Below are positions 3,134-40,914 of a stretch of 44,176 nt of DNA, one piece after another. Position numbers and translations under genes: made by a program. The stretch comes from a virus. Its lineage: Duplodnaviria; Caudoviricetes. The stretch lies in the IMG/VR virus record IMGVR_UViG_3300046025_000011, positions 1-44,176 of that record. One strand, 5' to 3'. The notes beneath the pieces are model-generated. The model was not told the origin of the DNA, did not search any database, and was given only the letters and a program-made list of their open reading frames with translations. Position 1 is the stretch's first letter. Each line of letters begins with the position of its first letter.

Positions 3134-3159
3134 CAGTACGTCAGCCCAGGTTAAGTTAT
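3134..3159 (+). promoter_or_regulatory. Putative late-class promoter
   Basis: CAGTACGTCA-N7-TTAAG, with the same spacing as the motif before the portal and protease genes. Confidence 0.6.
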
Positions 3160-3396
3160 CGTCCCGACGACGGTTTACACGGGGTGATGACACTCACTGA
3201 CACGAACCTGGTTCACTGACGCCCGCGGGCGGGACAGCCCAGGCGAACCGTTCACCTTCGTCGTCCCTGTCGCTCGTCGACCGACGACACGTCCCGGACG
3301 TCCCCGCGTTCACGACCCAGGCCGCCGCGGACCCGGCGACCAGGTCACGACCTGAACGTGACGGACGTCCAACCCCTACCCGATTCGATGCGGTCC

Positions 3397-3460
3397 TGAC
3401 GCGTTTTCCGGTAGCCAGTCCCCGTAGCGACTGGTCCAGGTTCGAATCCTGGCGCGTCGA
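3397..3460 (+). ncRNA. tRNA-like element lacking a D-stem
   Basis: Acceptor stem tgacgcg/cgcgtcg plus discriminator A; 11-nt unpaired segment containing GG; ccagtc/gactgg stem; canonical T-arm ccagg-TTCGAAT-cctgg. Confidence 0.7.
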
Positions 3461-3463
3461 TGT

Positions 3464-4984
3464 ATGTCCCAGGAAGCTGTCGGGACCCAGTCCGACCCGG
3501 ACCACGATCCGGACGCGGACGACGTCTCAGACTGGAACCAGGTCGTTCAGGGGATGAACCTGGACGTCCTGCAGAAGATGGAACAGAACAGCGTCGATGC
3601 CGTGGTCACGTCCCCGCCCTACTGGGGACTCCGCGACTACGACGGCGCGGATGTCACCTGGCCGGACGGCTGGGAAGGCCAACTGGGCCAGGAACCCGAC
3701 GTCGATCTGTTCCTGGACCACCTGCTGATGGTCTTCGAAGCAGTCCGTCGCGTCCTGAAGCCTACCGGCGCGCTGTGGGTGAACATCGACGACAAATATT
3801 CGAACAGCGTCACGGGAAGCCAGCCGTCCGGAGCTGACGGACGCCCCAGCCGCGACGCGTCCGAACACGCCGACCAGGGCCTGGACTTCGCCGCGCCCTA
3901 CAAGTCCCGGAACGCCATCCCGGAACGCTTCGTCGTCCGGATGGTCCAGGACGGCTGGGTCTACCGGAACGACGTCGTCTGGAACAAGTCGAACGCCATG
4001 CCGGAAGCCGTGAAGGACCGCCTGGCGCGACGCTGGGAACACGTCTACCTGTTCACGCCGACGGCGGACACATGGTTCGACCTGGACGCCATCCGCCAGC
4101 CCCACGTCGAAAGCAGTCAGCGACGCGTCCAGCGGAACACCTCCGGCCAGCAGAAGAACCCCGCCGACGGGATGCCGGACGACTTCCAGGGCGGCGAAAA
4201 CGACGGCCTGACCGCCGGTTCGACCGACCAGTGGATGCATCCGAACGGGAAGAACCCCGGCGACGTCTGGGAATTCGCTACCGCGTCCTACAGCGACGCC
4301 CACTTCGCGGTCTTCCCCGATGACCTCCCCCAGCGCGCCATCCAGGCGACGACGCCGCCGAAGGTCTGTCCCCAGTGTGGAACGCCGTTCGAACGCGTCA
4401 CGGAGCCCGCCGACCCGTGGTCCATCGAAGCGACCGGCAGGCCCCAGGCCGTCCGCGCTGTCGAACTGGCGCGGGAACACGACCTGACCACCGACCACCT
4501 GGAAGCCATCCGCGCCCGCGGCCTGAACGATCCGGGCAGAAAGACCGAAGAAGCGCAGACCGGAACCGGGCGAAACACCGACGACGTCGAACGCCTGGCG
4601 ATGGAAGCGAAAGACGCCCTGGGCGGCTACTACCGTGAATTCACGGCGACCGGCGAAGTCCCCATCGGCTGGGAACCCGGATGCGACCACGACGCGACCG
4701 CCAGCGACGCACCCGCCGGAACCGTCATCGACCCGTTCGGCGGCGCGGGAACCACCGGCCTGGTAGCGAAACACCTGAACCGACGCTGGTTGACCATCGA
4801 AATCAGCGACGACTACGCCCAGCAGGCCCGCGACCGCATCAGCGGAAAGATGGAACGAACCAAACAGTCACGACGCCGCGCGGAACGCGTCCAGAAACAG
4901 GCCCAGGACGCCGGCCAGACCCAGGCGTCCCTGAACACCTTCCAGGACACGTCCACCGACGCGGACGACGACACGGACGCGTAG
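3464..4984 (+). CDS. DNA amino-methyltransferase (N4-C/N6-A family, beta-class motif order)
   Basis: Motif IV VVTSPPYWGLRDY near the N-terminus, HFAVFP, and motif I VIDPFGGAGTTG near the C-terminus; CPQC-containing insert. Confidence 0.92.
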   Translation: MSQEAVGTQSDPDHDPDADDVSDWNQVVQGMNLDVLQKMEQNSVDAVVTSPPYWGLRDYDGADVTWPDGWEGQLGQEPDVDLFLDHLLMVFEAVRRVLKPTGALWVNIDDKYSNSVTGSQPSGADGRPSRDASEHADQGLDFAAPYKSRNAIPERFVVRMVQDGWVYRNDVVWNKSNAMPEAVKDRLARRWEHVYLFTPTADTWFDLDAIRQPHVESSQRRVQRNTSGQQKNPADGMPDDFQGGENDGLTAGSTDQWMHPNGKNPGDVWEFATASYSDAHFAVFPDDLPQRAIQATTPPKVCPQCGTPFERVTEPADPWSIEATGRPQAVRAVELAREHDLTTDHLEAIRARGLNDPGRKTEEAQTGTGRNTDDVERLAMEAKDALGGYYREFTATGEVPIGWEPGCDHDATASDAPAGTVIDPFGGAGTTGLVAKHLNRRWLTIEISDDYAQQARDRISGKMERTKQSRRRAERVQKQAQDAGQTQASLNTFQDTSTDADDDTDA

Positions 4985-5039
4985 CGCGCCCACACGACGA
5001 CCGACAGCTTCCACCGACGACACACGACACACGACCCAC

Positions 5040-5090
5040 GCCCCTGCAGATCGACCCGGCGAAAGCCGGCCAGGTCTGCAGGGGCCTTTT
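5040..5090 (+). terminator. Stem-loop with T-tract after the methyltransferase
   Basis: gcccctgcaga/tctgcaggggc stem with inner ccggc-GAAA-gccgg, followed by ctttt. Confidence 0.6.
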
Positions 5091-5240
5091 CGTCATCCCG
5101 CCCGCCAGCTCCGCGCCCACGCCCACGACGCCGCCGTAACACACTCCTACCACCTGTCAGCCATCCGAACGGCGGGGTGGTAATCCCCGCCTACCTGGCG
5201 CTCCGAACCTATATCCGGAAACGATTCAAAAGCATCAGAT

Positions 5241-6095
5241 ATGCCACCTGACCCTGGCGGTGACGCCGACATCAGGACCTACGACGACGTGGACCCGTCG
5301 TTCACCGACGACGACGGGACGGTCCGATGCGGCGTTCCGAAGACGACGAACGGTGAACCCTGCAGGCATCCAGTCCCGAACAGCGACTGTCCGACCCACG
5401 GCGACCGGGACGCGCGGATCGACGCCGTGACCGACGGCGACGTCCAGCTCCCCGACGGCGTCGGGTCCGGCGACCCAGGCCATCAGCAGGGCGACGGCCA
5501 GCCGCCGGACGGGAACAAGAACGCGATGACCCACGGCGTCTACGCGTCCCGGAACGATCCGTGGGGGACGCTGGACTACCTGCAGGACGAAGCGCCCCAG
5601 GTGTACGCCCGCGTCGTTCGCTGGTTCTGGGACGAAGCCCTGGACGCCCCGTTCGACGTCTACACCGACGGCCACATTCCGGACGTCCCCGGCGACCCGA
5701 CGGAAGACGACGGCATCCCCGGCATCGACGTGGGGCGGCTGACGTCGCGCGCGGCGGATCTGCTACTGGTCAGCCTGGACCGCGGCATCACGTTCAACGC
5801 GACGATGTCCCAGGCGAAGCGCGGCCTGGCCTACGAACAGACGAAGGCGACGTCCGACGGCGCGGTCCAGACCATAGACGAAAACCCGGTGAACCTGCCG
5901 AAGAACCGGATGCGGCGGGAGGACCGCGCCCAACTGAAGGACCTGGGGCTACGGGACGACAGCCCGGACGCGGTCGCCGCCCAGGGCCAGCAGGACCTGG
6001 CCGCCGCTGCTGAACGCGTCGCCCAGCGGAAGGACCAGGACGACGGTCGATCTACCGACGCCGACGACGGCCAGGACGGGGGCGGTAGTGAATGA
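5241..6095 (+). CDS. Putative terminase small subunit
   Basis: N-terminal C-x9-C-x8-C-x2-HG cluster and GNKNAMTHG motif, typical of a TerS family; lies upstream of TerL. Confidence 0.65.
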   Translation: MPPDPGGDADIRTYDDVDPSFTDDDGTVRCGVPKTTNGEPCRHPVPNSDCPTHGDRDARIDAVTDGDVQLPDGVGSGDPGHQQGDGQPPDGNKNAMTHGVYASRNDPWGTLDYLQDEAPQVYARVVRWFWDEALDAPFDVYTDGHIPDVPGDPTEDDGIPGIDVGRLTSRAADLLLVSLDRGITFNATMSQAKRGLAYEQTKATSDGAVQTIDENPVNLPKNRMRREDRAQLKDLGLRDDSPDAVAAQGQQDLAAAAERVAQRKDQDDGRSTDADDGQDGGGSE

Positions 6096-10818: not shown

Positions 10819-11530
10819 CGTCCTGGTCCCCCTGCCGGATGAACGGCATGACGTCGTCTTCGACCCACTGAACGAATTCGTGGGTTCCCCAGTCCGGGGA
10901 CCAGACTTCGACCCAGCCCGACTGGGCGATGTTACAGTGGACCGCCCAGCCGTCGTAGGTGTAGGTCCCTGGGGCGATGGGCGTCGTATCGGACTGCTTG
11001 TTCGCATCGACCAGGTCGCCCAGGTCTTCGTCTTCGTCCAGGCGGTCGCCCCAGGACATGAACTTGTCCGCGTTCGCCCCCAGGGCGACGCCGCCCGCGC
11101 CCTGTAGGTTGTAGTCGTCCTTCCCGGACAGGAACCCGCCCAGGGCGATTTCCGTCCGTTCGATCCGGACGCCGGGAAGCTGGCGGGCGACGACGTCGAA
11201 CACGAATTCCGCTTTCGACGTTGACACGGCGACGAAGCCAGGATGCCCGTCGCGGGCTTCCACGGCGACGAAGTCGGCCCAGGTCTGGTCCTTCTGGCGA
11301 CTGTCGCGGATGCGGATGGACCCGTCTTCGACTTCAGCGCGGTCCACTTCTTCCTGTTCTTCCCGAAGGGCGGTCCCTTCGATGAACTTCGTTTCGCCGG
11401 ACAGGTCTTCGACACGCTGGACGTCCAGCGTCGTGTGGAATTCCATCCCGTAGCGTTCGTCCACGTCGTCCTGGCTTTCGATGCGGTCGATCTGGCCGTC
11501 CACCGGGACGCCGATGATGCCGGCCTTCAT
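10811..11530 (-). CDS. Hypothetical protein
   Basis: 239-aa acidic ORF in a coupled minus-strand operon. Confidence 0.8.
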   Translation of the reverse strand: MKAGIIGVPVDGQIDRIESQDDVDERYGMEFHTTLDVQRVEDLSGETKFIEGTALREEQEEVDRAEVEDGSIRIRDSRQKDQTWADFVAVEARDGHPGFVAVSTSKAEFVFDVVARQLPGVRIERTEIALGGFLSGKDDYNLQGAGGVALGANADKFMSWGDRLDEDEDLGDLVDANKQSDTTPIAPGTYTYDGWAVHCNIAQSGWVEVWSPDWGTHEFVQWVEDDVMPFIRQGDQDDD

Positions 11531-12477: not shown

Positions 12478-12505
12478 CCTACCAGTCCGTCACGCGTCCT
12501 TAAGA
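12478..12505 (+). promoter_or_regulatory. Putative late promoter of the portal gene
   Basis: CCTACCAGTCCGTCACG-N5-TTAAG; ATG 29 nt from the TT, consistent with a leaderless mRNA. Confidence 0.75.
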
Positions 12506-12528
12506 ATCCCGGACGTCCTGATACTACC

Positions 12529-17523: not shown

Positions 17524-17551
17524 CCTACCAGTCCGTCACGTCCCCTTAAGT
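17524..17551 (+). promoter_or_regulatory. Putative late promoter of the capsid operon
   Basis: Third identical CCTACCAGTCCGTCACG-N5-TTAAG. Confidence 0.75.
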
Positions 17552-27181: not shown

Positions 27182-27204
27182 CACTACGTCCGTCCAGGTT
27201 AAGG
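27182..27204 (+). promoter_or_regulatory. Putative late-class promoter restarting the tail operon
   Basis: CACTACGTCC-N7-TTAAG; ATG 27228 lies 29 nt from the TT. Confidence 0.6.
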
Positions 27205-34994: not shown

Positions 34995-35413
34995 GGGGTG
35001 GTCGCATATGTCGAAGTAGGAAACACCTACACACGTTCGCTCCCGGCTGGCCCAGACCGGCCACAATTCTTCTGGGCGCGTCACCTGGCGGGGCGCGGTG
35101 GATCGAACACTGCAGTCGTCGATCTGCCGACCTGGGTGATGGCTACAGGACGCCCCCGGTCCCTTTCAGGCCAGCGTCGGCCTGCAGCGCGGGGCCGCCG
35201 ACCGCGTCCGTGACAGCCGGTTCACGGCAGGACGCGAAACAGGACACGAAACCGACGTCCAGACGGACGGCGACGAAGCGTCCGGCGGCCCACGGGTCGC
35301 CAGGGCGTGAAGGCTGGAACAGGCGGGCGTCGGTGGAACGGGCTGGGGCGAACCCGCCCGCGACCACGGTCAGGCATCACACGCTGACAGCCGTGGACGT
35401 GACGCTGGACACT

Positions 35414-35488
35414 ACCGTCTAACCGCTTCTGGTCAGCTCCGGCTGGCCCTGGCGGGACGGTCGCCCTGGGCCGGGCGCGAACGGTCCA
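35414..35488 (+). ncRNA. Structured leader element, copy 2
   Basis: ccgtc/gacgg, ccgc/gcgg, ggtcagc/gctggcc; pseudoknot cgcc/ggcg with tgggccg/cggtcca; 16 nt before ATG 35505. Confidence 0.8.
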
Positions 35489-35504
35489 CTTCACTTTTTC
35501 AACC

Positions 35505-36362
35505 ATGAACATCGGAAACACGGTCTACGAAATCGGCGGCCTGGAACAGACAGTTCGAACGTGGAAGATCGAAGACGTGGTCCGCGGCGACAGTGACGAC
35601 CCGTATTGGTGGGTCATCATGACCAGCGACCAGTTCCGCGTCATCGTGAAGGAACAGGACCTGAAGGCCCGCCTGGCCGAACAGAAATCCCGCGACGAAC
35701 TGACGGGACCGACGGACACACGGGACAAGGGCCGATGGCGGACGTTCAACCCCCGCCGGCGCGGCCAGGGCATCGTCCCCGCGGAACCGGACACGGACTT
35801 CGACCGAATCGACCGCGCCCTGTCCCCGCGCCGGGGGTCAGACCTGGACTTCGAACGGACACGCGATCTGTCCACGGTAAACGACTTCCTGGACCACCCC
35901 GCGCTGGTCAGCCATGACCTGGGCGGGACGAACTTCCCGGTCGCCATCTTCACCGCGCGGTCGCCCTACGACGGAAGCATCGTCGGAACGGTTGTCCTGA
36001 AGAAGCCGTCCGCCCGCGCCCTGGACGACTGGGAAGACGGCGGCCCCCACAACGGCGGCGATGGAACGCGGGTCGAAGTCGCCCGCCTGGCGACCCGCGT
36101 GGATCGACCAGCGAACACGGCGTCCTGGATGCTGGCCCGCTCCGCCCGCTGGGCCGACCAGCAGGGCTTCGGCATCATCCAGGCATACGCCGGAATGGCA
36201 AACAACCGCGGAACCTGCTACGACGCCGCCGGTTTCGACGTCCAGGCGACGGACGCTGAAGCGGACGGGGCGGCCTGGAACAGCGCGGATGACCGCGACG
36301 GACGCGTGGTCGTTCAGGACGGCGGAACCTGGACGCGACGCCGCTGGGAACGCGACCTATGA
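35505..36362 (+). CDS. Mom-like GNAT-fold DNA-modification protein
   Basis: VEVARLA...PANTASWMLARS...IQAYAG...GTCYDAAGF matches the Mom/XF1762-type EL.RL...N..S.....YAD....G..Y.AA.F pattern. Confidence 0.7.
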   Translation: MNIGNTVYEIGGLEQTVRTWKIEDVVRGDSDDPYWWVIMTSDQFRVIVKEQDLKARLAEQKSRDELTGPTDTRDKGRWRTFNPRRRGQGIVPAEPDTDFDRIDRALSPRRGSDLDFERTRDLSTVNDFLDHPALVSHDLGGTNFPVAIFTARSPYDGSIVGTVVLKKPSARALDDWEDGGPHNGGDGTRVEVARLATRVDRPANTASWMLARSARWADQQGFGIIQAYAGMANNRGTCYDAAGFDVQATDAEADGAAWNSADDRDGRVVVQDGGTWTRRRWERDL

Positions 36363-37543
36363 CTGACGACGACATCATCACGACCCGCGACCAGTACGGC
36401 CTGGACCACGACCTAAGCGACGTTCGATTCTACTGGGGCGTCGCATCAGGCGGGACCCACGCGGCGCTGTCCCGCGCGGTCGACGACGACAGCCTGCCGG
36501 ACCCGGACCACCTGATGGTTTCCTGGATGACGGCGATGAACGGCGTCTGGGAAGGCCCGGCGTGGTTCATCGACAGCGGCGGGGCTCCGGACACGATAAA
36601 GGCAAACGGCGGTCATCCGAAGCCCATCAGCGACCACCTGGACTACCTGGAAACCCCGCCGACGAAGTACGGGTCCGATCCGGAAGACGTCCAAATAGAC
36701 CGCTTCGCCCTTCGGGACTGGCCGTGTGAACCCGCGGTCCGCGACGAACTGGGGCTGACGGTCGAAGAACTACAGCAGAAGACCCTGGACGACCATATCC
36801 GGATGCTGGAAGCCGCCGACGGGCGCGACATCGACGCCCGGCCCGTCGCGGTCCTGCAGGGCTGGACGCCCGACGACTACCTGGACTGTCTGGACCTGTT
36901 CCGCGACCACGGCCTGGTTACGGACGCCATCGGCCTGGGTTCCGTGTGTAGGCGCGGCGGCCTGGATGACATCCAGGACATCGCCCACCGCGTCCGCCGG
37001 AACCTCCCTCCGCGCGTCGATCTACACGGCTTCGGCCTGAAGCAGTCGATGCTGGAACAGCCGGATGCCCTGGACGTCTTCGACAGCGTGGACAGCGCGG
37101 CCTGGGAAAACACACTACGGCAGGCGACCCGCGACGGCATCGACAAGGCCCCGCCCCAGCCGGACCTGACCTACCAGGACTGGGACGACTGGGACGACCG
37201 CGGAAACCCGCGCTACACGTTCGGGAACGTTCAGACCTGCTTCGACGGCTACGCGGCGAAGGTGAACGGCATCCGCGCGTCGAACGGGAAGGACGCGCGG
37301 ATCGTGGACCTGGCCGACTGGCCCGCGGTCATCGACCGCCTGGACGGCGACGGAACGGACGGCTACCCACTGCTGAAGTGTGTCTGTGGGACCATCGTCG
37401 ATCCAGGCCGTCCGGACCCTGGCCCGGACGTCGGCTGTCGTCACTGCCAGATGGCCGCGGTGAACATTTGGGACCGACACGTCGCCCACCGGGACCAGAC
37501 GCTTCACGGCGACTACCCGGACACGGACCTGCCGACGCCGTGA
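36359..37543 (+). CDS. TGT-fold, DpdA-like 7-deazaguanine DNA transglycosylase
   Basis: FIDSGG, DWPCEP, VLQGW, GLGSVCRR, LHGFGLK and DSVDSAAW motifs in TGT/DpdA order; C-terminal CVC...CRHC. Confidence 0.8.
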   Translation: MTDDDIITTRDQYGLDHDLSDVRFYWGVASGGTHAALSRAVDDDSLPDPDHLMVSWMTAMNGVWEGPAWFIDSGGAPDTIKANGGHPKPISDHLDYLETPPTKYGSDPEDVQIDRFALRDWPCEPAVRDELGLTVEELQQKTLDDHIRMLEAADGRDIDARPVAVLQGWTPDDYLDCLDLFRDHGLVTDAIGLGSVCRRGGLDDIQDIAHRVRRNLPPRVDLHGFGLKQSMLEQPDALDVFDSVDSAAWENTLRQATRDGIDKAPPQPDLTYQDWDDWDDRGNPRYTFGNVQTCFDGYAAKVNGIRASNGKDARIVDLADWPAVIDRLDGDGTDGYPLLKCVCGTIVDPGRPDPGPDVGCRHCQMAAVNIWDRHVAHRDQTLHGDYPDTDLPTP

Positions 37544-37550
37544 CCCGACC

Positions 37551-37626
37551 ACCGTCTAACCGCCCGTGGTCAGCTCCGGTTGACCCTGGCGGGGCGGTCG
37601 CCCACGGCCCTGGGCGTCGAACAGGG
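37551..37626 (+). ncRNA. Structured leader element, copy 3
   Basis: ggtcagc/gttgacc hairpin; pseudoknot cgcc/ggcg with ccctg/caggg; 14 nt before ATG 37641. Confidence 0.75.
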
Positions 37627-37640
37627 GACCAACTACCGAC

Positions 37641-37919
37641 ATGACCGTGACAGACGTCTACAGCCCATCAGAAACGGCGCTGGTAGATGCGATGGTCGGG
37701 GACACGCTGGAACTGTCCCAGTACGTCCAGGAAGTCAGTATCCTGGAACGCCGCCTGACCATCTACGGACTGGTCGTCATCGTCCAGTCCACGCATCCCG
37801 CCGCGTCAGCGAAGTATCGACTACGCGCGACCCACGGGGACGACCGCCTACTGCTGGAAAAGCAGGACGGCGACGACTGGACGTCCCACTGTCGCGTCGA
37901 AGCGACGAAGACCAACTGA
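37641..37919 (+). CDS. Hypothetical protein
   Basis: ORF directly after the leader element. Confidence 0.7.
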   Translation: MTVTDVYSPSETALVDAMVGDTLELSQYVQEVSILERRLTIYGLVVIVQSTHPAASAKYRLRATHGDDRLLLEKQDGDDWTSHCRVEATKTN

Positions 37920-37932
37920 CCTTTTCGAAATC

Positions 37933-38517
37933 ATGTCAGAACTACCGATGAGCCAGATCGACAGCGACGCATCGAACGACGAAGACGACCGCGACCCAGC
38001 CCAGCGACGCCGCGACCGCGGCATCACGAAGGAAATGGACGACCTGGACTGTCACGACTGCCAGACGCCCATCAGCCCGAACACCGGCATCCACGCCGAC
38101 GGCTGGTCCTACCGCGGCGGGACGTGTCCGAACTGCCGGTTCGGGGACGCCGCCAGGGTGGACGTCGATCCGGACGCCATCAGCGACAGGCGGAAACAGC
38201 GGCTGGCCCAGAAGCGCCGGTCGCCCCAGGCCCAGTCCTGCTTCCAGGCGGCGCTGTTCCTGGATCAGCAGGTCCCGGCTGGCCGCTACGTCATCCGACG
38301 CGTGACCGCCCACACGGTCCAGGTCCAGCTTCCGGACGACATCGACCAGGACGCCCGTCACGCGCTGGCTGACCGCTACAAGAACGCGACGAAGACGTCC
38401 GGGGAACGCGTCTGGTACGTGCAAAGCTTCCCGGACCGCATCAACCTGGTAGACTTCCAGTTCGGAACCCAGAACGAAGGGGAAAAGCCCCTGGTCACGG
38501 CCAACAGTGGTCCCTGA
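37933..38517 (+). CDS. Zn-finger protein
   Basis: CHDC...CPNC motifs. Confidence 0.7.
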   Translation: MSELPMSQIDSDASNDEDDRDPAQRRRDRGITKEMDDLDCHDCQTPISPNTGIHADGWSYRGGTCPNCRFGDAARVDVDPDAISDRRKQRLAQKRRSPQAQSCFQAALFLDQQVPAGRYVIRRVTAHTVQVQLPDDIDQDARHALADRYKNATKTSGERVWYVQSFPDRINLVDFQFGTQNEGEKPLVTANSGP

Positions 38518-38519
38518 CG

Positions 38520-38858
38520 ATGGAAGACATCATCACGAAAGCGGTCGCCCGCGCGGTCGCGGAACAGGAACAGAAGATGAAGGACGCGCTGGCGAACACC
38601 GACTGGGACCAGACCGCGGTCGTCCACTTCGTCCAGTACCAGCCCGACCTGGCGCGGGCGGTCGCCGGCCCGGACGACGACGTCGAAAAGGCCGACGTGG
38701 TCGGGGAAGTCAAAGTCCACCGCTACGGCGACCACGCGCCCCCGCTGGACGTCTACGCCGACGGACGGCGGAAGTATAACGTCCGGACGGTCACGAAGCC
38801 GCTTCTGGACCGCATCCAGGACGACCACGACGTGGACCTGCCGGAACAGTCCAGGTAG
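38520..38858 (+). CDS. Hypothetical protein
   Basis: Acidic ORF. Confidence 0.7.
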   Translation: MEDIITKAVARAVAEQEQKMKDALANTDWDQTAVVHFVQYQPDLARAVAGPDDDVEKADVVGEVKVHRYGDHAPPLDVYADGRRKYNVRTVTKPLLDRIQDDHDVDLPEQSR

Positions 38859-38873
38859 GTCCCGCGTCGATCT

Positions 38874-38952
38874 ACCGTCAAACCGCCGCGTGGTCAGCTC
38901 CGGCTGGCCCTGGCGGGGCGGTCGCCCTGGTCCTGGGCGGCGGACAGGACCA
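38874..38952 (+). ncRNA. Structured leader element, copy 4
   Basis: Same hairpin; pseudoknot cgcc/ggcg with a perfect 8-bp tggtcctg/caggacca; 14 nt before ATG 38967. Confidence 0.8.
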
Positions 38953-38966
38953 TCGACGATCGAAAC

Positions 38967-39500
38967 ATGGCGAACGAACTAATCGAACGGCTGGAAGGTC
39001 AGGGAACTGGCTACACAGTCATGGCGAAGCGAATCGACCCGGATGAACACCCAGCGATGGAACACGTCGGCTACAGCAGTCCGACGACCATCTTCACGGT
39101 CTGGACCGACGGCGGCGTCGCGGTTACGTCCCACGACGCCTACCAGGTCGTCCGCGACCTGGACGGCGACGACGACTGGCTTCTGGACGACCTGCAGGCG
39201 ATGGACGACGCCCTACGCGCTGCTGACGACCAGCCGGAAGTCGAAGAAGACGCTGGGAACCTGTTCATGGACCTGGCCCGCTACTACCACACGCAAACGC
39301 GGAAGGCCCAGGACAGCGCCCAGACCGCTGAAACGGACAGCGGCGGCGCGGTCCACGACGCCCGCGCTGGAGCCTACAGTCACGCCGCGACGGCGGCCCG
39401 CGAAACCGCCAGGTTCGCCCGCGGGGAACGCGACGACACGCCGACCGCGGTCGTGGTCGGGGAAGCGACGATGGCCGACGACGCGGGGACCGATGACTGA
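38967..39500 (+). CDS. Hypothetical protein
   Basis: ORF directly after the leader element. Confidence 0.75.
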   Translation: MANELIERLEGQGTGYTVMAKRIDPDEHPAMEHVGYSSPTTIFTVWTDGGVAVTSHDAYQVVRDLDGDDDWLLDDLQAMDDALRAADDQPEVEEDAGNLFMDLARYYHTQTRKAQDSAQTAETDSGGAVHDARAGAYSHAATAARETARFARGERDDTPTAVVVGEATMADDAGTDD

Positions 39501-39732
39501 CCAGGATCGACCGGGGACGGTCATCGAACACGGCGCGGACATTCAATTCACCGACGACCAGGACGTCCATCCCGCGAACTACGTTCGCATCCTGCCGAAC
39601 GGCTACGTGGAAGCCATCACGGCGACGTCCTACCAGGTGGACTACTACCCGCCCCACAAGGTCGCCGGCGTCCACACGCACACGACCGACGAACAGGAAG
39701 ACGACATCCTGGGCATCGACAAAGATGACTGA
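39493..39732 (+). CDS. Hypothetical protein
   Basis: MTDQDRPGTVIEHG...; 3' part of track ORF 39043..39732. Confidence 0.7.
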   Translation: MTDQDRPGTVIEHGADIQFTDDQDVHPANYVRILPNGYVEAITATSYQVDYYPPHKVAGVHTHTTDEQEDDILGIDKDD

Positions 39733-39895
39733 AACCAAAGCGTGTCGGGGCTACGGCGACCGACATGACTGTTCGAACGAAGTTCCCGAACACCTGCTGG
39801 ACGGCGGGCTTTGCCCGAAGTGCCGGGAACTGCAGCGAATCGACGCGGAAGAACGCCATCAGCAGACCAGGGACCCGACCCTGGAACCCTACTGA
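39725..39895 (+). CDS. 56-aa Zn-finger micro-protein (not in ORF track)
   Basis: MTETKACRGYGDRHDC...LCPKC... Confidence 0.65.
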   Translation: MTETKACRGYGDRHDCSNEVPEHLLDGGLCPKCRELQRIDAEERHQQTRDPTLEPY

Positions 39896-39897
39896 CC

Positions 39898-40371
39898 ATG
39901 TCGAAAAAGAAGACCTACAAGCAGTGGCTGGTCCTGGACTGGAAGACCGGGGACAGTCGCACACGAAAGAATAAGCCGTCGTCTTCGGAGCTGAAGGCGA
40001 ACGAAATACTGGCCGAACTGAAGGTGGACGTCGAAGTCCCGGAAGTGGACGTCCCGACGCTGGCCGTTCAGATCGACGTCCCCGAACCCCAGGTCTACCA
40101 GGCGACGCTGGAAGCCATCGACGACGAAGACCTGCCGGACTGGACCGACGCCGCGAACGAAATCCTGGCCGACCACCGGGGCGTCATCACCGACGCCTAC
40201 GACGAAGCTGAACTGGACGGCGTCGTGGACCAGATGGCGACCCAGACGCTGATGAACGCGCCCGGCAGGCCGCCGGTGGACCAGGTCCACGAATACCTGG
40301 ACGCCCAGGCGGTCCAGATGTTCCGCGACTACAAGAACGACGCTGACGACCAGGGGGAAGCCGATGTCTGA
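39898..40371 (+). CDS. Hypothetical protein
   Basis: MSKKKTYKQWLVLDWKTG...; ATG 39898 is the likely start. Confidence 0.75.
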   Translation: MSKKKTYKQWLVLDWKTGDSRTRKNKPSSSELKANEILAELKVDVEVPEVDVPTLAVQIDVPEPQVYQATLEAIDDEDLPDWTDAANEILADHRGVITDAYDEAELDGVVDQMATQTLMNAPGRPPVDQVHEYLDAQAVQMFRDYKNDADDQGEADV

Positions 40372-40813
40372 CATGGACTTCGACGGCGCGGCGGACATCG
40401 CTGACGCCATCGAACAGGCCGGCGGGCGCGTTCGTGACTTCGACGTCGGACAGGCCGCGCCCCAACCCCAGGGCATCATCGACCTGACGGCGCTGATGAA
40501 GTCCAGCGTCACGGTCTACCACTTCGCGGTCGAAGTCCCCAGCGACACGACGCGGGACATCGACATCGACCAGCAGGACCCGGTCGAACGCGAAGCCATC
40601 GTCAGCTTCCTGGCGTCGATGCTGGAAGCGGGCGACGGGATGCCGGTGGACCCGGACATGACGCCGGCCCAGAACCTTCGGGCGGTCGTGGGTCAGACCG
40701 ACTACGATCTGTCGATGTTCCGCGAAGCCTACGACCGCGTCCACGACGACCTACCGACTGGGTGGGACGCTGGTCCGCCGCCGGAACCAGACGCCGAAGC
40801 GGACGACGCGTAG
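40364..40813 (+). CDS. Hypothetical protein
   Basis: Acidic ORF overlapping the upstream gene. Confidence 0.75.
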   Translation: MSDMDFDGAADIADAIEQAGGRVRDFDVGQAAPQPQGIIDLTALMKSSVTVYHFAVEVPSDTTRDIDIDQQDPVEREAIVSFLASMLEAGDGMPVDPDMTPAQNLRAVVGQTDYDLSMFREAYDRVHDDLPTGWDAGPPPEPDAEADDA

Positions 40814-40837
40814 CCAGCCGACCTTTCGAATTCTTTC

Positions 40838-40914
40838 CCGTCTAACCGTCCACGGTCAGCCGCGACTACTGACCTGGCGGGGCGGTCGCCCGCGGGCTGG
40901 GCGTCAAACAGTCC
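40838..40914 (+). ncRNA. Structured leader element, copy 5
   Basis: ggtcag/ctgacc hairpin; pseudoknot cgcc/ggcg with gggctg/cagtcc; 13 nt before ATG 40928. Confidence 0.75.

Follow-up and report, generated by a model that had tools for sequence, protein, structure and literature searches.

The 64-nt tRNA-like element that lies 3 nt ahead of a DNA methyltransferase gene in this virus is a real element that most likely works like a t-element, with its cutting predicted by analogy to host systems. The specific proposal, in which the tRNase Z and RNase P of the host would cut it as a viral t-element that stands in for a promoter, falls in our estimate slightly on the probable side.

The window, by which we mean the whole stretch of DNA analysed (44,176 nt), is a linear virus record, ~90% complete. 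The terminase is similar to its counterparts in CGphi46, ChaoS9 and Haloarcula tailed virus 3, the capsid protein resembles that of HHTV-1 (55%), and it encodes an archaeal Hjc, so that the host is probably a haloarchaeon; the window is, judged by its genes, a haloarchaeal tailed virus. The following features are considered below.

3139..3155, plus strand: predicted viral late promoter, a CGTC-N8-TTAAG box (from motif count and conservation in kin)
3180..3396, plus strand: non-coding leader of ~217 nt, released by a putative RNase P cut (from the leader profile of three relatives)
3296..3370, plus strand: long, imperfectly paired hairpin within the leader (folding of 3290-3375 gives -40.7 kcal/mol, z -2.83)
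3376..3414, plus strand: competing hairpin, a possible switch or a folding-model artefact, occupying the 5' strand of the acceptor and the GG loop (from the folding model)
3397..3460, plus strand: tRNA-like element of t-element type (from sequence, fold and simulation; kept in a close relative)
3461..3463, plus strand: 3-nt leader left by the predicted tRNase Z cut after A3460 (from sequence)
3464..4984, plus strand: beta-class amino DNA methyltransferase, 506 aa, with an SPPY motif (PF01555, E 1.3e-42; phrog_67)
5241..6095, plus strand: likely terminase small subunit (phrog_9231, E 9e-7)

The best homologues of the methyltransferase are all acidic; a single fragment reaches 75%, and the others stay at or below 45%. 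An in-frame stop at 3425 means that the protein has no N-terminal extension through the element. The terminase small subunit is probably encoded on the methyltransferase transcript, since the scan detected no promoter box between 3155 and 12488. The 256-nt gap that separates the two genes (4985-5240) holds a 13-bp hairpin and no promoter box. Elsewhere in the window, a Mom-like and a DpdA-like gene adjoin as a DNA-modification pair (35505-37543), at least four copies of an intergenic 40-70-nt repeat (families D5, D6 and D19) lie within 35411-40911, and many 6-base palindromes have 0 copies across 1-44176, e.g. three with 53-59 expected.

Anatomy and class of the element

Reading the sequence reproduced exactly the parts of the fold, their positions and the ATG at 3464 as given in an earlier note on this DNA. 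The acceptor stem of 7 bp (3397-3403/3453-3459) consists of six Watson-Crick pairs and a terminal U1.G72 wobble, the latter with a pair probability of 0.58 in isolation, and is followed by A3460 as the discriminator. The T-arm (3436-3452) has 5 bp and a TTCGAAT loop, yielding an acceptor/T helix of 12 bp with a consensus T-loop. Between the 5' strand of the acceptor and an extra stem of 6 bp with an 8-nt loop (3415-3420/3429-3434) runs a stemless segment of 11 nt (3404-3414), whose GG at 3410-3411 presumably contacts the T-loop in the elbow. Base 3435 alone separates the extra stem from the T-arm, and RNAfold pairs it with G3414 as a seventh pair. Among the traits by which t-elements are recognized, the element displays an acceptor stacked on a T-arm with a consensus T-loop, the discriminator, and a GG without a full D-arm.

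The claim that this is not a decoding tRNA holds: the D-stem and the variable loop are missing, the 8-nt loop lacks U33, the vertical arm has 6-7 bp, and ARAGORN, RF00005 and Rfam at gathering scores made no call on the element, with Rfam at these scores giving 0 matches across the window and 7 related loci. Of the RNA families, mascRNA-menRNA (RF01684) matches the element best, at 20.3 bits and E 2.7, where the cut-off is 42.5. The idea that the element is a decoy for anticodon nucleases gained nothing beyond a GUA triplet in the loop. A tmRNA was rejected, ARAGORN finding none, with the tag reading frame absent and A3-U70 rather than G3.U70 in the window, and so was charging with alanine or glycine, the identity pairs not being common to the window and its relative.

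Folded alone, the element reaches -26.3 kcal/mol (z -3.14), a stability equalled by 0 of 200 shuffles. In 2000 simulated third-order Markov genomes, a T-arm occurred in 491, a T-arm with a 7-bp acceptor in 41, and the full feature set, with the GG and the abutting 6-bp stem added, in 3, by criteria that were picked after the element had been seen. Chance, or the by-product of a 103-codon frame on the opposite strand (3194-3505), could produce such a fold, an explanation that we hold to be highly improbable. A bare T-arm is common in the simulation, the window contains a second one at 11154, and the opposite-strand frame stays open in the relative too, because the two indels of the relative cancel. 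The full set is nevertheless rare, the element is intergenic and on the sense strand, and the frame has less than 10% acidic residues, with 0 matches among 50,697 phage records and one weak match (E 0.06) in related loci. The T-arm at 11154 was itself dropped as a further candidate, being inside a gene on the other strand and without a full acceptor.

When 26 nt of upstream sequence are included, the folding model favours the 3376-3414 hairpin (-13.5 kcal/mol alone) by 5.7 kcal/mol and the acceptor pairing probability falls to ~0; with coaxial stacking included, the advantage shrinks to 0.8-3.0 kcal/mol. An uncut structural switch or brake, in which the tRNA-like fold and this hairpin set the access to the ATG, or in which the fold shields the mRNA from decay, is congruent with two folds that are mutually exclusive and within 0.8-5.7 kcal/mol of each other, and with the five differences of the relative in 3376-3414, all of which fall, as judged by hand, at unpaired sites of the competing hairpin. 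We nonetheless find such a switch quite unlikely, as occlusion needs neither a consensus T-loop nor a correctly placed GG, and a ligand-sensing part is not evident. Real tRNAs moreover often show competing folds in the model, with 11 of 52 failing the same context test, as do 5 of 9 elements of the ChaoS9-like family described below, and the competing hairpin is therefore a caution and a possible switch rather than a refutation.

Predicted promoter, leader and proposed processing

The window contains 5 copies of the CGTC-N8-TTAAG box where 0.11 would be expected, an enrichment that is inflated because the motif was derived from those same 5 sites, and the box precedes matching genes in three related viruses (G001, G004 and G005) too. 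On the plus strand, three copies precede the start codons of the portal, protease/scaffold-like and tail-region genes by 29, 36 and 29 nt, respectively, and the tail-tube gene has a relaxed match 28 nt ahead of it; from these downstream genes we infer late timing of the promoter. The family in the window comprises 3139-3155, 12488-12515, 17534-17550, 27187-27203 and 24139, with 12488-12515 being two overlapping boxes back to back that face the portal gene and a PadR-like gene. The box at 3139-3155 is located 242 nt upstream of the element; its distance is 36 nt to a 10-codon ORF and 313 nt to the methyltransferase ATG. Transcription would start near 3180, with a methyltransferase leader of ~284 nt that ends in the element. 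A box scan of the window found none at leaderless distance (29 nt) before the ATG at 3464, and a Shine-Dalgarno sequence before this ATG was not found. A sigma-70 promoter scan was set aside as inapplicable to archaea.

The leader begins with a GTGA-N6-TCAC palindrome (3184-3197) and holds the 10-codon upstream ORF (3187-3219), the ATG of which is missing in the relatives. In the close relative, one change in the long hairpin converts a G.U pair to A-U and another, at 3320, breaks a predicted pair. A C/D-box or kink-turn at 3184-3220 was considered and dropped, the closing stem being absent and the relatives keeping just the palindrome. A non-coding leader of 200-290 nt before packaging genes, which opens with a palindrome and contains a long hairpin, is common to five viruses (window 3160-3375; L212:1255-1540 on the minus strand; L215:3410-3650, minus; L216:3955-4235, minus; L218:18153-18218). 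The leader is without an Rfam match, and its conservation may mean that it acts as a non-coding RNA of the virus or as a signal in the DNA.

In the proposed mechanism, a late transcript would begin at ~3180 and run through the leader and the element into the methyltransferase. The GG at 3410-3411 would dock on the T-loop, forming a tRNA-like elbow, and tRNase Z would cut after A3460, leaving UGU-AUG and splitting an out-of-frame AUG (ATG 3460-3462, which opens a 125-codon ORF and overlaps the predicted cut). RNase P would cut before 3397 and release a leader RNA of ~217 nt. The methyltransferase would then be translated from a cut, 5'-monophosphate and effectively leaderless end with a 3-base leader, and its high late output would allow progeny DNA to be modified ahead of packaging. 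All features read by RNase P and tRNase Z are intact, namely the 12-bp helix, the consensus T-loop, the GG and the discriminator, which argues for processing; RNase P reads the G19-C56 elbow and the distance of the elbow to the acceptor end, according to the accessible text of PMC10941002. Leaders of 0-5 nt count as leaderless and constitute the main class in H. volcanii, with 72% of protein-coding transcripts in the available part of PMC4983044, figures that concern primary transcripts, not cut ends. The folding model keeps the AUG region largely paired even after the predicted cut.

A more elaborate version is conceivable and rather unlikely as a whole: one late transcript would give three products, the ~217-nt leader, a CCA-tailed 64-nt mini-tRNA and the methyltransferase mRNA, with a leaderless end made by tRNase Z, gating by the hairpin, and a portable mimic in place of a promoter. 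If this version is true, archaeal ribosomes would start on a cut 5'-monophosphate end that is deliberately made by tRNA enzymes. The element poses two questions testable in Haloferax, on the punctuation of viral mRNAs by tRNase Z and RNase P, and on leaderless translation from cut as compared with primary ends; if both are answered positively, it would also provide a small transferable module with which leaderless mRNAs can be produced.

Homologues and syntenic kin

The sole true homologue was recovered from three brine metagenome runs of one study (contig depth 4-8, ~95% identical). None of the runs listed for this stretch is an RNA run, which carries no weight on expression. In a hand alignment, C1-G72 and G3.U70 replace the U1.G72 and A3-U70 of the window, both acceptor changes still pairing; the GG loop is longer by one base, and the out-of-frame ATG at 3460 is lost. 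The divergence, 3 events in the 64 nt of the element against 7/209 in intergenic sequence and 30/588 in the gene, is the background rate, with 55 nt unchanged (P 0.06-0.15), and the relative is, as a sequence, too close to reveal selection on the element.

Further homologues were sought by pattern, by blastn and through the adjacent genes. A T-arm element just before the gene was found at 0 of 80 methyltransferase loci, including 9 halophile-like ones inspected directly, and the pairing of element and methyltransferase is thus not conserved. The exact 3'-end pattern gave 0 matches in viral contigs and a close pattern 0 in metagenomes, and a loose pattern gave 53 loci in viral contigs, with 0 homologues on inspection, and at least 120 in metagenomes (5/64 parts), all spaced like ordinary tRNAs. 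Blastn against phages and plasmids returned T-arm matches only, and single-protein scans with the methyltransferase and the terminase no viral locus. A side observation concerns phage genes of tRNA-like form in which the anticodon arm is shortened (L007, L036, L040, L042, L045, L047, L049 and L053, near 1501); they are mostly uncalled by ARAGORN, and several of them are inside tRNA clusters.

A further set comprises the 35 loci related by capsid alignment, with most of the remaining sequence added for 21 of these records. Four of these viruses are syntenic with the window around the element. G001, G004 and G005 have the same first promoter and a homologous leader; the profile of three kin leaders matches the window solely at 3154-3228 (E 0.002), and G007 has a related leader hairpin (E 0.00056). 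In the corresponding slot of G001, G004 and G005 there is no tRNA-like element and no methyltransferase; all three have there, ~43 nt before the gene of a 64-aa membrane protein, another promoter-like box, of which the TATA part is weak. The kin hence place a second promoter-like box in the slot where the window has the element, so that the element would achieve by processing what the kin appear to do by promoter, the making of a leaderless mRNA; this comparison of sequences is the main new support for processing, and circumstantial. In G004 (L215), the leader before the 64-aa gene is interrupted, relative to G001 and G005, by ~520 extra bases of lower GC, which indicates that the slot takes insertions.

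The same comparison bears on two other readings. The element and the methyltransferase appear as a joint cassette that is absent from the syntenic kin, as expected if a tRNA gene, captured or in decay, or else a former attachment site had arrived with the methyltransferase and were functionless now. Haloviruses carry tRNA fragments as attP in the accessible text of PMC8707807 and PMC7230728, the divergence of the relative is at background, and the D-loop letters match bacterial-type tRNA-Pro/Met, where in ordinary tRNAs the same letters stand inside a full D-arm. Yet the three stems are fully paired, while both strands of the D-stem and the variable loop are lost, a combination that would be rare under random decay, and both acceptor strands are present, unlike in 5'-truncated attP fragments. 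The 24-nt 3'-end pattern, by which host tRNAs were compared, has no archaeal match and occurs in 2 actinobacterial stretches only (one genome for each of 185,579 species, so that a match in a particular host strain may still exist), and neither the 64 ORFs scanned with Pfam nor the 24 scanned with PHROGs included an integrase, in a record that is ~90% complete; on these two grounds an attP was also rejected as a class. We therefore regard a remnant as unlikely.

An equally modest chance is given to the released RNAs being the purpose, that is, 3'-end maturation of the leader together with a CCA-tailed, mascRNA-like small RNA, possibly a tRNA-Tyr-like decoy, with the start of the methyltransferase incidental. 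In four viruses the leader keeps its place and part of its sequence, and a related hairpin exists in G007; the best RNA-family match is mascRNA-menRNA, at the 20.3 bits given above; the loop contains GUA and, in the relative, C1-G72 is joined by A73, which we take to be archaeal tyrosine identity elements. The kin, however, retain the leader although they lack a tRNA-like element, the mascRNA score falls far short of the cut-off of 42.5, and the window has U1.G72 and an 8-nt loop without U33, with the alanine-type G3.U70 of the relative being A3-U70 in the window. As the identity pairs differ between the two, they have no charging identity in common.

Comparison with known tRNA-like systems

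No viral t-element is described in the accessible parts of the literature searched, which lies mostly outside subscription journals. The tRNA-like domain of tmRNA combines an acceptor, a stemless D-loop with GG and a helix leading into the T-arm; the element differs in having neither a tag frame nor pseudoknots, and G3.U70 is found solely in the relative. The mascRNA/menRNA type is a small, D-stem-poor tRNA mimic whose two-sided cutting parts the upstream RNA from what follows. Here the element departs by its 20.3 bits against a cut-off of 42.5, and mascRNA belongs to a eukaryotic long non-coding RNA context without a downstream gene.

Odd tRNA genes are known from haloviruses, such as the tRNA-Arg of ChaoS9 and the tRNA-Pro of HF1/HF2 (in the accessible text of PMC6471424, PMC7230728 and PMC8707807), and odd tRNA-like sequences in these viruses are of uncertain function in the papers that are accessible. 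The element resembles them as a tRNA-like sequence whose function is uncertain and which lies close to lysis or packaging genes, and is unlike them in that those are scanner-detected full cloverleaves, or 3' fragments beside an integrase. Among the related loci, odd and fuller cloverleaves with a shared D-arm stand before small genes at L195:668, L233:1115 and L238:14608, with a second T-loop motif ~120 nt upstream of the cloverleaf in L233, and the ChaoS9 cloverleaf (annotated as tRNA-Arg) precedes a membrane-protein gene.

A closer parallel in design is found at 10 of the 35 capsid-related loci (all in the more distant, ChaoS9-like group), where an element of the same design lies 16-21 nt before the ATG of the prohead protease. 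These D-stem-less elements sit between the head-assembly and prohead-protease genes, are followed by a RUGA..CUGA motif and are unannotated in the ChaoS9 record (L194:2171, L195:7835, L196:7815, L197:2621, L198:1086, L199:7922, L200:5096, L208:7909, L210:5293 and L211:7828; L199:1365-1407 is a further match to the family). Across 9 distinct rows, 7 of 18 pairs are changed on both sides and 87.5% of the cells pair, above shuffled (1 of 500 shuffles) and slid controls, an excess that the kinship of the rows inflates. The family model ranks the window element first of 90 matches, at 18.7 bits and E 0.014, via the T-arm alone, where the training members score 37-81 bits. Judged by sequence, the window element has the same architecture and is of a different family. 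Common to both are a stemless GG loop, a variable stem 0-1 nt from the T-arm and a location just before a late-gene ATG; the window element differs in its sequence and gene slot, in the 3 nt to the ATG as against 16-21, and in lacking the RUGA..CUGA motif.

The t-element proper is the haloarchaeal one that precedes 5S rRNA (Hoelzle et al. 2008, 2012, as described in the accessible text of PMC4326828, PMC7714728, PMC3296008 and PMC5627344), and natural t-elements of haloarchaea are, in the accessible papers, known only from this location. In Haloferax cells, both RNase P and tRNase Z cleave t-elements that stand on either side of a crRNA, according to the available part of PMC4326828. Directly before 5S rRNA on pNMAG01 of N. 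magadii, we find an acceptor, a GG mini-loop and a T-arm, one copy with a clean and one with an imperfect acceptor and both without the extra stem; by position, these stretches are taken as host t-elements. Hoelzle and colleagues are said to have found, in 2012, that other computed tRNA-like elements of Haloferax remain uncut in vitro. The window element differs from the 5S t-element in being viral, in preceding an mRNA start rather than an rRNA, in an extra 6-7-bp stem-loop in the anticodon position and in its length (64 nt versus ~46 nt), the sequence likeness is limited to the T-loop, and its cutting is predicted only. It shares with the 5S t-element an acceptor with a consensus T-arm, a short GG loop in place of a full D-arm, the same host group and enzymes, and a downstream RNA that starts right after the discriminator.
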